From Deferribacterales bacterium (lineage in GTDB: Bacteria > Chrysiogenota > Deferribacteres > Deferribacterales > Geovibrionaceae): a DNA stretch of 31,810 nucleotides. Below are positions 24,117 to 30,496 of this stretch, one piece after another (the first letter of the stretch is position 1; every line of letters starts with the position of its first letter). A program made the position numbers and the translations under genes. Under the pieces are notes generated by a model. The model did not search any database. It saw only the letters and a program-made list of their open reading frames with translations, and was not told where the DNA came from. Location: assembly GCA_050253335.1 (NCBI GenBank), contig JBFWJG010000030.1, positions 1 to 31,810 of the forward strand, written 5' to 3'.

Positions 24117-24338
24117 ATGAACTGGGGAAGCAGCATTTACCGTTTCGGCCTTTATGCAACATGGGGCATAGTGTTTATCATTGCTTATATCTACTGTGTA
24201 AAAACTTACGGATTTGCCCTTGGCGGCGGGGTGGGCTGGTTGCCTTCCGCTATCGCCGCTTATGTCGCAGGGCTTATCTGGCCTGCGGTTGTTCCTTTTC
24301 TCGTTTTTATGTTTTTCAGCGGCAGGTTCGTGGTTTAG
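24117..24338 (+). CDS. Small hypothetical membrane protein (73 aa)
   Basis: GGAG RBS; hydrophobic throughout; YGF.LG.G.GWLPS.I.A...G..WP pattern. Confidence 0.6.
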   Translation: MNWGSSIYRFGLYATWGIVFIIAYIYCVKTYGFALGGGVGWLPSAIAAYVAGLIWPAVVPFLVFMFFSGRFVV

Positions 24339-24344
24339 TTCCCT

Positions 24345-24533
24345 AGGCAATTTGTACATTCCGTCAAATTGCCTCACACGCTCGCGGACTGCAAAAGCAG
24401 TCCTTCGCTTCGCACGGCGCAGCATCTTGCCCTCATGCCCAAAATTTACCCTCCATGGAAATTTTGGATACACGCTCGCGGGCGGGTAAACCGCCCTTCG
24501 CTTCGCACGGCGCAGTTCCATCCATGGAACTGT
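24345..24533. repeat. Two tandem copies of a multi-hairpin intergenic element
   Basis: Shared linkers ACACGCTCGC and TTCGCTTCGCACGGCGCAG (24376-24422 and 24470-24515) between hairpins whose stems differ. Confidence 0.85.
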
Positions 24534-24569
24534 TTATGTGTCGGAACTTCATGTTAAGCTCATCCCCTT

Positions 24570-24768
24570 CCCGTCATGCTGAACGAAGTGAAGCATCTCC
24601 ATTCTGAGACTCTTCGCATTCGCTCAGAGTGACCGTGAATAAGAGACTTAAATCGTTATGCATTCTCTGCTCGGAGAAGATCTTTGTTGCCGGAACGGGA
24701 GGACAGGTCAGTTCTCGCCCGTCATGCTGAACGAAGTGAAGCATCTCCATTCTGAGACTCTTCGTGAC
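24570..24768. repeat. CGTCAT-type REP-like palindromes; 47-bp direct repeat (24570-24616, 24718-24764)
   Basis: CCCGTCATGCTGAACGAAGTGAAGCATCTCCATTCTGAGACTCTTCG occurs twice. Copy 1 continues into an inverted partner (to GTGAC at 24633); copy 2 has a 13-bp internal deletion. Confidence 0.85.
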
Positions 24769-27396: not shown

Positions 27397-27493
27397 GATT
27401 CAATTTATTTATGGCGTGCCTTTTTGTGAATTTGATTTGCAAAAATAAGATATTAAGCTATGATTGATAATAAACAATCAGGAGAGAATTTCC

Positions 27494-28993
27494 ATGGCCA
27501 ATATAACTATTAATATTCACAATATAAAAGGTATCTCATCAGCCAATCTTGAATTACCATTGGAAAATGGTGTGTATGCTCTTGTTGGGGGAAATGGAAC
27601 TGGTAAAAGTACTATTTTGCAATGCATAGCTCAATTAATTCGTCCACAAAATGCTTTACTTGCTTTAAAGCCAAATGATTACAAATCAGATTCATCTGTT
27701 GAGTTTTTTCATAAATCTGATTCAGATAAATGGTTTTATTCAAAAAAAGGATGGAGAAACCAGATTTATCAATCAAACAGACGAAAAGATGCAAAAAACA
27801 ACATACCAATCAATGGTATGTACGAAGGAAGCCTGTTTGTTGGTACACGATTTATGGATTCAAAGCAGGTTGATTATTTGGTTGCAAATCAGGAGCTTAC
27901 ATCATCTGATTTAGTACCTGCAGACGATTATGTAATAAAGAAACTGAGCTATATATTGCATGGCGATTTGACACATTATGCAAGTTTAAAGCGATTAAAA
28001 AATAGAGAATTAAAAGAAAAAAATAAATTGAAGAATCTGCCTTATTTTGTTGAAAGCTCTTTTGGGGGGCTTATCAGTCAATATCGTATGAGTTCAGGTG
28101 AATGCCTATTAGTATCTCTTTTACATTTCATTTATAATGCAATCATACGTTCATCTCTTCCTATTAATCTACCAATAATAATGCTGTTAGATGAGATTGA
28201 GCTTGCGCTTCACCCTGTTGCTGTTTCTAGATTTCTTGATTTGATTGAAGAGATAACTAAAAAATATCTAAATGTTGTTGCAATTTTGACTACTCATGCT
28301 CCTGAAGTTATTAGGCGTATTGAACCATCAAATATCTATAAATTGGAAAATGATAATGGAGATATTAGTGTAATAAACCCATGTTACCCAAGTTATGCAA
28401 TTAGAGAGCTCTACACACACGATAAGTATGATTATCTTGTGCTGTGTGAGGATGCTTTAGCAAAAAAATTAATTAATAGTATAATAGCAAAAAATAATGC
28501 TTGCACAAGCAAACTTGTTTGTGTACTTCCAGTTGGTGGATGGGAAAATGTCCTCAAATTACAATTAGAACTTGTGAAAAATAAAATACTTGGAGTTGGG
28601 ACACAAGTTATCAGTGTCCTGGATGGTGATATACAACATGAGTGCAAAAAGAAAACAGATTATGATTCGTTAAAAAAATTATTTTTGCCTATCGCAAGTA
28701 TTGAGAAATTTTTATTTTCAATTATATATGAAGGGAAAGATAAGGTACTTAGAAAGATTATTGGCGACAAATATTTCCAACTTCAATCTCTTGAAGAATT
28801 AATATCACAGTTTAATAAGAATAATGAAAATATGCCCAAACAACCAAATAAGTCGTTCTATAAAATGCTGAAAGACAATCTGTCTGAGCGTAAAATTAGT
28901 GAAGATGTTTTTATCGATTCATTGTGTGATGATATCAAAGACAATCGTGATTTATCAAAATTTACCGCCCAACTAATTGAACAAATAAAATAA
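27494..28993 (+). CDS. AT-rich ABC-type ATPase fused to a TOPRIM-like domain (OLD-like ATP-dependent nuclease, candidate defence protein)
   Basis: Walker A GGNGTGKST, signature MSSGE, Walker B MLLDEIE-LALHP, TTH switch; C-terminal LVLCED...VGG...VLDGD; AGGAG RBS before ATG 27494. Confidence 0.8.
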   Translation: MANITINIHNIKGISSANLELPLENGVYALVGGNGTGKSTILQCIAQLIRPQNALLALKPNDYKSDSSVEFFHKSDSDKWFYSKKGWRNQIYQSNRRKDAKNNIPINGMYEGSLFVGTRFMDSKQVDYLVANQELTSSDLVPADDYVIKKLSYILHGDLTHYASLKRLKNRELKEKNKLKNLPYFVESSFGGLISQYRMSSGECLLVSLLHFIYNAIIRSSLPINLPIIMLLDEIELALHPVAVSRFLDLIEEITKKYLNVVAILTTHAPEVIRRIEPSNIYKLENDNGDISVINPCYPSYAIRELYTHDKYDYLVLCEDALAKKLINSIIAKNNACTSKLVCVLPVGGWENVLKLQLELVKNKILGVGTQVISVLDGDIQHECKKKTDYDSLKKLFLPIASIEKFLFSIIYEGKDKVLRKIIGDKYFQLQSLEELISQFNKNNENMPKQPNKSFYKMLKDNLSERKISEDVFIDSLCDDIKDNRDLSKFTAQLIEQIK

Positions 28994-29051
28994 TTTTTTA
29001 TTTAAAATTAATGTTTGTATTGAATTTTTTCTTAACGTTATATTTGATTTC

Positions 29052-30160: not shown

Positions 30161-30477
30161 GGATGTACGGATTTAAGTTATTAAAATGAGAGATTCTTCA
30201 CTGCGTTCAGAATGACGTTAAACGCTTGACAGTTCCATGGAAGGAACTGCGCCGTTCGCAGCGAAGCCGAACTTGTTTCGGCGCGAGCGTGTACTTAAAT
30301 CCGACAGGATGTACGGATTTAAGTTATTAAAATGAGAGATTCTTCACTGCGTTCAGAATGACGTTAAACGCTTGACAGTTCCATGGAAGGAACTGCGCCG
30401 TGCGCAGCGAAGCCGAACTTGTTTCGGCGCGAGCGTGTACTTAAATCCGACAGGATGTACGGATTTAAGTTATTAAA
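30161..30477. repeat. Tandem repeat, 146-bp period (2 full copies plus 25 bp), containing a three-hairpin element and a CGTCAT-type palindrome
   Basis: GGATGTACGGATTTAAGTTATTAAA starts at 30161, 30307 and 30453; the two full units differ at one position I could find (T30256 vs G30402). Confidence 0.92.
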
Positions 30478-30496
30478 TAAGAGGTATGCTCTATAT

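Follow-up and report, generated by a model that had tools for sequence, protein, structure and literature searches.

The window (the whole stretch of 31,810 nt analysed here, from a Deferribacterales genome) carries four copies of a mobile repeat of ~ 110 nt, in which two end hairpins with A(N)GGAN loops on one strand, hereafter the GGA strand, surround a core. The element is mobile, and the mobilisation that the original prediction had offered as one explanation was borne out by empty sites and long target duplications. New features are a fixed TC junction with long duplications, empty sites and the exchange of hairpins in place, in a family absent from Rfam. With slightly better than even confidence, we regard it as a non-autonomous element which would move by target priming through its GGA strand, whose copies would be kept intact and whose loops are probably read by a protein.

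Architecture of the repeat and its copies in the window

A three-hairpin layout had been described at two places in the window, and all of the stems and linkers quoted for it were present where they had been placed, including the hairpin 2 stems (GGACTGC/GCAGTCC, GGGCGG/CCGCCC and GCCGAA/TTCGGC), linker 2 (TTCGCT(T/G)CG(C/A)ACGGCG) and hairpin 3 (CAGTTCC/GGAACTG). A covariance model built from 46 non-redundant training copies, one of them from the window, recovered four window copies and none besides (E values of 1e-12 to 5e-22, filters off). This agrees with the predicted number, although just three versions are independent, copies 3 and 4 (30229-30471) being tandem duplicates with 99% identity. 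Other details needed amending: the element begins at ~ 24330, about 15 nt further left than the proposed start at 24345; hairpin 3 of copy 1, taken to be degenerate, breaks off after CAGCA and runs straight on into the copy 2 leader; and conservation of the loops of hairpins 1 and 3 had been overlooked. In the genome of the window (G000), a TCC loop was present in hairpin 1 of 134 of 143 copies and in hairpin 3 of 114.

The core consists of linker 1, hairpin 2, which lacks GGA, and linker 2; 26 nt of it are invariant and the linkers are only 10 and 16 nt long. Each window copy folded better than 200/200 shuffles (DNA z-scores of -4.1 to -6.9). The fixed end lies mostly 40–45 nt before linker 1, and 46 nt before it in copy 1. 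The dimer spacing of 88–96 nt seen between copies 1 and 2 recurred in 15 of 55 within-cluster spacings of G000. All features are listed in Table 1, where gene positions are those of our own gene caller.

Table 1 Features of the repeat and its surroundings in the window
Position	Strand	Feature	Basis
24117..24338	+	73-codon membrane-like ORF; last three codons and stop lie within the copy 1 leader	own gene call
24330..24344	-	copy 1 leader (fixed end), joined to host behind GGTTC on the + strand	empty site in G001
24345..24374	-	copy 1 hairpin 1; - strand loop ACGGAA	sequence, folding, covariance model
24376..24419	-	copy 1 core: linker 1, hairpin 2 (24386-24403), linker 2 with - strand GCGNAGC	
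24420..24438	-	copy 1 truncated hairpin 3 (CAGCA) fused to copy 2 leader	sequence
24439..24533	-	copy 2, complete: hairpin 1 loop ATGGAG, core, hairpin 3 loop ATGGAT	covariance model, 95.6 bits
24568..24640; half copy 24718-24764		unrelated palindromic repeat starting CGTCAT	CGTC-type label after the available part of PMC3733652, by description only
30161..30185	+	partial extra copy: half hairpin 1 and leader, broken in loop	
30229..30335	+ (GGA strand)	copy 3 with leader	covariance model, 105.5 bits
30329..30374		spacer of 146-bp tandem unit, with half CGTC-type repeat (again at 30183-30228)	
30375..30481	+	copy 4 with leader, ending just before dnaG ribosome-binding site	covariance model, 108.8 bits
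30497..31810	+	dnaG (primase), directly downstream of copy 4 on the GGA strand	Pfam; own gene call for start

Palindromic repeats of the CGTC type adjoin the window copies (24568-24640, 24718-24764, 30183-30215 and 30329-30361). The short pattern of this type had 51 matches in the genome, and a half unit ending in AATCTC was a recurrent landing site of the element.

Distribution, covariation and the informative strand

A search of the whole G000 assembly (142 contigs, none shorter than 2.6 kb) for further copies produced 143 in 88 clusters, compared with 0 in the reversed genome. Hairpins with a TCC loop numbered 267, against 9–79 for five control loop words, and together these two comparisons argue that the element is not a product of chance. 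All multi-copy clusters (44/44) were arranged head-to-tail, and hairpin 2 was represented by 68 distinct sequences. The exact pattern matched 74–241 times in each of four genus members, the single-contig member G003 having the highest number, and 2–4 times in two genomes of a second genus, with no match in the other 35 of 41 genomes. Of 68 genomes from the phylum, 23 yielded looser relatives with the covariance model, all within two families (f1 and f7), and most of the 19 loci inspected by eye retained GGA hairpins at one or both ends. Among the matches listed in a scan of named genomes (80 loci), only those from Deferribacterales had the structure; the remainder, in which hairpin 2 and the loops did not occur together, were rejected as chance, as was one viral match. 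All 34 metagenome loci came from one assembly, and no plasmid or phage match of the element was found in the searches.

Loci in other genera (L222-L237) combined different linkers with a conserved pair of GGA hairpins and with GC-G(N)NA-GC units that overlap; many of them end at a ribosome-binding site, and L225, L230 and L237 are one locus. At L004 (G006:C1:598025) a copy stands directly before what looks like a phage-like amidase gene. A longer sister family of ~ 135 nt was also observed in G000, whose members share the end hairpins and have two TTCGC units as well as a third GGA loop (C21:34699, C21:30038(-), C23:34132(-), C32:21691(-), C121:2991-3265(-) and others). It had 12 strict-pattern matches, one of them a fragment, and more were seen by eye; on C32 the longer type interrupts a short-type copy whose counterpart in a further genus member, G002, is intact.

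Across 46 distinct rows, 93.7% of cells paired, and the covariation score was 0.597 compared with 0.161 for shuffled data; none of 500 shuffles scored as high, which is not to be read as a probability given that the rows are related, and slid partners scored 0.07–0.13. RNAalifold recovered all three hairpins as well as a helix that pairs one linker with the other, this helix being almost invariant and without covariation support, and placed the GGA hairpins at the two ends, outside this core helix. Strong covariation in a repeat family can arise through the exchange of whole hairpins instead of stepwise compensatory mutation. The selection on an RNA or ssDNA structure originally proposed is supported by covariation and by constraint at orthologous sites, but the informative strand is opposite to the one that had been read.

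This opposite strand is likely the working one. On it both end loops read A(N)GGAN, in five- and six-base forms with the N positions free, the commonest being ATGGAT/ATGGAA and AGGAT, and linker 2 contains GCGNAGC, where N was any of the four bases (T 49, C 28, A 24 and G 42 in 143 copies). Non-canonical pairs were G-T on the GGA strand in 41 cases versus 19 on the other (unique stems, three genomes). Taken by hairpin, the bias was significant for hairpin 2 alone (14 vs 3) and missing from hairpin 3 (6 vs 7), and it could stem from strand-biased mutation.

Empty sites, target duplications and hairpin exchange

Both window sites varied in occupancy between genus members. The first measured 84 bp in G001, where it is empty, versus 515 bp in G000; G002 held one copy and G003 a remnant in which hairpin 1 is joined to hairpin 3 through the loops. 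The membrane-like gene running into this site ends differently at the empty site of G001. The second site held a remnant, one, two and three copies across the four genomes. The element also amplifies in tandem. Of 25 placeable G002 sites, 17 were also present in G000 and eight lacked the short type there, some of these eight holding remnants or the longer sister type.

Direct repeats flanked 39 of 155 clusters, compared with 4 of 600 mismatched flank pairs. In a larger set they were detected at 48 of 190 clusters and not at the other 142, and in 39 of the 48 the left end fell 36–48 nt before linker 1; these represent 31 distinct sites, whose repeats measure 18–76 bp (median 40, 96% identical). 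Of the 23 sites that could be scored, 19 had TC at the expected junction (background 0.20); eight of the 31 sites were unscored, and the 42-nt scoring window was our own choice. At one locus (L018) a single copy of the 35-bp target is present in the empty ortholog. A hairpin 3 remnant opens several of the left repeats, so some of the apparent duplications may be collapsed tandem arrays. Breaks at the loop TC are frequent among array junctions and truncations, and truncations affect both ends of the element. The duplicated segments were no more hairpin-like than their neighbours (p = 0.35, n = 16); landing beside terminators was rejected for the GGA-hairpin element.

A few sites deserve separate mention. 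At three distinct sites in G000 (C10:45783, C26 and C79) the target reads GA|TC and the left junction GA|GC. At C23:19766-19864 (orthologs L011 and L103) a gene's first 44 nt, which we take to be a fliM-like start, occur twice as a result of the insertion; in the more distant genome both 44-nt copies bear synonymous changes peculiar to that genome, as if the two had been homogenised. In run X2, a single contig of depth 3.2, which differs from the window at 3 of 352 flanking bases, carries 15 unrelated letters instead of 30186-30491 and thus lacks both copies before dnaG, but assembly collapse is possible.

Long and variable duplications would also be expected of a MITE moved by a DDE transposase that makes such repeats and was later lost from these genomes. 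According to the available part of PMC2229807, the YPAL/RU-2 repeats of Yersinia are, like the element, gene-less and free of terminal inverted repeats, with variable duplications, and are co-expressed with upstream genes, as the element would be; they also lack TA ends, and YPAL is the nearest precedent for such duplications without terminal repeats. They differ in that the YPAL duplications span 3–26 bp and target dyads, while no GGA loops are described in that part of the paper. We nevertheless consider a lost DDE transposase very unlikely: inspection of the ends of our element showed them to be strongly unequal, with neither the terminal inverted repeats nor the short fixed duplication of classical bacterial MITEs, DDE_Tnp_1 was found in none of five genomes, and the exchange of cassettes would be left unexplained.

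This exchange was seen most clearly at the 17 sites common to G000 and G002. Hairpin 1 was kept in 17/17 (0–4 differences in 32 nt, with one single-deletion shift), whereas in the G002 copies hairpin 2 was a different common allele, wholly replaced, at six sites and hairpin 3 at at least two. At 2/2 sites compared with G003, hairpin 3 differed by 5–6 bases and hairpin 2 was the same. Within G000 the combinations of modules were only weakly linked. Stems that are fully replaced yet still paired, as originally described, do therefore occur; at least part of their replacement is the exchange of whole cassettes between copies and not the regeneration of palindromes. An origin of stems from the target sequence was unsupported, the alleles of hairpins 2 and 3 recurring at unrelated sites. 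In more distant genomes hairpin 1 too differed at many shared sites, which may reflect exchange or independent insertion, and the polarity holds at close range only.

Comparison of aligned copies suggests that the resident ones are likely under constraint. At 19 shared sites, which were detected via intact linkers, free positions differed at 18/85 and constrained ones at 28/1301. Hairpin 1 stems differed at 11/374 positions, compared with 31.6% of four-fold codon sites and 9.5% of other aligned intergenic DNA, the last figure being biased low by the alignment. These stems are largely locus-specific (60 distinct arms in 90), and conversion could not easily maintain them for that reason. However, the free positions of hairpin 1 differed at only 3/38, so that the contrast between free and fixed positions may partly reflect conversion and not selection. 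One-sided stem changes outnumbered compensatory ones by 15 to 4.

Genomic placement, possible mechanisms and related systems

The GGA strand was the sense strand in 36 of 44 co-directional gaps of G000, and the upstream gene read into it at 64 of 78 clusters. By replication, 40 clusters versus 18 in G000 had it on the skew-inferred leading strand, a figure confounded with gene direction; a strict orientation by replication strand was rejected, G003 having 111 forward and 130 reverse matches (the first 100 listed). The leader lay in the start region at 14 of 44 clusters, ending -12 to 28 nt from the start codon. Contigs from one RNA run cover both window clusters, although such contigs carry no strand or level and the repeats map to many places; no promoter of the element's own rose above chance at either cluster.

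In 20 of 64 cases a stop codon was no more than 8 nt from hairpin 3, and one terminator-like site was present in the window (24512-24533), as might be expected of simple terminators or RNA-stability hairpins spread by local duplication. Still, such an origin is barely credible, since the count of one equals the shuffled mean (1.3), the second cluster has no such site, terminators need neither invariant loops nor a 26-nt invariant core, and only 20 of 88 clusters lie between convergent genes. The proximity to stop and start codons could be explained by short gaps (median 15 nt), selection or later trimming.

In the target-primed mechanism that we favour, a host 3' end ending in TC would pair with the GA that closes the folded strand (RNA or ssDNA) on its 3' side and would be extended across the element, with synthesis rejoining ~ 40 nt back and thereby generating the duplication. 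If the reaction began in a resident copy after hairpin 1, with another copy as template, hairpins 2 and 3 would be overwritten and hairpin 1 spared. Most copies would be co-transcribed on the GGA strand in untranslated regions and kept intact there, and a protein would probably read the loops, with CsrA the best candidate. The loops and the sense bias point to an RNA template, while GCGNAGC and the missing reverse transcriptase point to DNA. The element shares with target-primed retroelements one fixed end, a variable long duplication and truncated copies, but not a host reverse transcriptase: RVT_1 (PF00078) was detected in one of four genus members and was absent from G000 and G003, and no element copy stood beside the reverse transcriptase of G001. 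A lost or unrecognised reverse transcriptase is possible.

The RAYT or GIY-YIG partner suggested at the outset was not found either. Y1_Tnp (PF01797) was absent from all four genus members, so that the genus has no RAYT; in G000, G001 and G003 the only GIY-YIG proteins were UvrC-sized, with no small one in G000 or G003. Across 41 genomes the presence of RVT_1, Y1_Tnp and GIY-YIG did not track the element, and the fetched flanks of 55 such loci (RT, Y1 or GIY-YIG) from relatives held no copy of it. Self-BLAST of our own G000 gene calls returned no multi-copy transposase-like protein in this fragmented assembly. DDE_Tnp_1 and IS110 were absent from all five genomes searched for them, and none of the families covered (RVT_1, Y1_Tnp, GIY-YIG, DDE_Tnp_1 and IS110) yielded a mobilising enzyme.

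It is rather doubtful, in our estimation, that the element is instead a selfish ssDNA element cut behind TC by an HUH-type or similar nuclease, with the GGA loops as recognition sites and their likeness to CsrA sites incidental. GCGNAGC, invariant except for the four bases at N, forms a DNA mini-hairpin that is more stable than the RNA analogue tested (PMC13037366, available part). The breaks at the loop TC would fit such cutting, as would the three of four genus members without a reverse transcriptase. Against it stand the missing Y1 transposases, a Y2_Tnp search of five genomes that returned no match although its control was silent too, and an orientation that follows genes (36:8) more clearly than the skew-inferred replication strand (40:18). 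The long duplications do not fit either; known HUH elements make none or short ones.

Binding of the loops by the host's CsrA is, in our estimation, about evenly balanced between true and false, and a selected regulatory role is graded lower. That the element is a domesticated, dispersed CsrA-binding RNA, with operators or a distributed sponge in mRNAs and mobility in the past, we regard as rather doubtful as well. The loops match the consensus in both five- and six-base forms with N free, given as ANGGAN and CAGGA(U/A/C)G for CsrA/RsmE in the available part of PMC7652899, and the same idea is in print for TwoAYGGAY (available parts of PMC4333381 and of the Li preprint cited below). The sense bias, the leaders near start codons, the related elements in other genera that often abut the ribosome-binding site and the constraint on resident copies fit as well. 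On the other side, copy number ranges from 0 to 241 within one family that has csrA throughout, sites are gained and lost, and the neighbouring genes have no common function. The host csrA lies beside a gene identified by look as fliW-like, and joint control by FliW and sRNAs is left unsettled in the available part of PMC7652899, which also reports that SELEX suggested very stable stems may disfavour binding. Among 41 relatives 36 have csrA, most of them without the element, so the presence of csrA does not predict it.

An extension of the target-primed mechanism, which we hold to be unlikely, is a SINE-like element without an enzyme of its own, which the host would copy from a TC 3' end and which would overwrite cassettes, drop pairs of CsrA operators and so rewire the CsrA regulon. 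If true, such operators would have been set next to ribosome-binding sites and stop codons, in a phylum where FliW is thought to be the sole control on CsrA.

Comparison with Rfam, proposed with the original prediction, gave no gathering match in the window, and only chance matches (E up to 10) were seen around the finding and in eight loci from G000 and relatives. The closest likeness is to TwoAYGGAY (RF01731; PMC2864571; Li et al., preprint 10.64898/2026.09.22.753630), whose model had no match in the window and reached at best 22.4 bits in the genome (cut-off 43), on a lone hairpin and not on a full copy. As described in the available parts of these sources, TwoAYGGAY has two hairpins with AYGGAY-type loops, those of our element being looser with any base at Y, and both families are dispersed, with variable copy number, flanking repeats, proposed CsrA sites and mobile-like spread by no known enzyme. 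The TwoAYGGAY hairpins, however, are adjacent on a basal stem, whereas ours stand at the ends of the core with a third, GGA-less hairpin; and Pseudomonas doublets of TwoAYGGAY are divergent in 68%, whereas our clusters are uniformly head-to-tail. The element thus works like TwoAYGGAY but is not a member, being below the cut-off, with another layout and no divergent doublets, and its loops and mobile-like behaviour make it less unprecedented than first implied. The available part of the 2026 preprint describes both the spread of TwoAYGGAY and its binding by CsrA as still to be settled. Our element offers handles on such spread: one end is fixed, the junction is TC, the duplications can be measured, orthologous sites occur both empty and filled, and the cassette exchange is apparently directional. 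Should CsrA bind, RNA ligands would here compete for a CsrA of the FliW type; otherwise the loops would point to an unknown mobilising factor.

Other known families are more distant. For the Bacillaceae-1 RNA motif (RF01690) the published strand is the TCC one, and its reverse strand has two CsrA-type loops (PMC4333381, available part); our element has no Rfam match, a different core and three hairpins. CsrB/RsmZ-type sRNAs share the loops CAGGA(U/A/C)G and ANGGAN (PMC7652899, available part), and a relative in G007 scored 23.8 bits on PrrB_RsmZ (cut-off 44), but the element has two loops per unit and over 100 dispersed units, probably inside other transcripts, with no promoter of its own above chance, and in contrast to CsrB/RsmZ systems its host has a FliW-type arrangement. 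REP/REPIN repeats with RAYT and CGTC repeats are likewise extragenic hairpin repeats in clusters (PMC3733652, available part); our element has no GTAG/CGTC tag, inverted doublets or RAYT and is four times longer. A link between CGTC repeats and GIY-YIG nucleases had 0 occurrences in the available text of that paper. No published account of this element family was found, with subscription journals outside the scope of the search; preprint supplements show TwoAYGGAY variants, possibly including this layout.

Elsewhere in the window, an AAA-ATPase gene (27464-28993) is skipped by a contig of run X2, which indicates a strain-specific insertion of ~ 1.65 kb (27397-29051). The segment 1350-8246 encodes a 1383-aa protein with Ig-like repeats, together with a homocitrate-synthase-like gene and a radical-SAM/FeMo-co gene that are nifV- and nifB-like by domain content.
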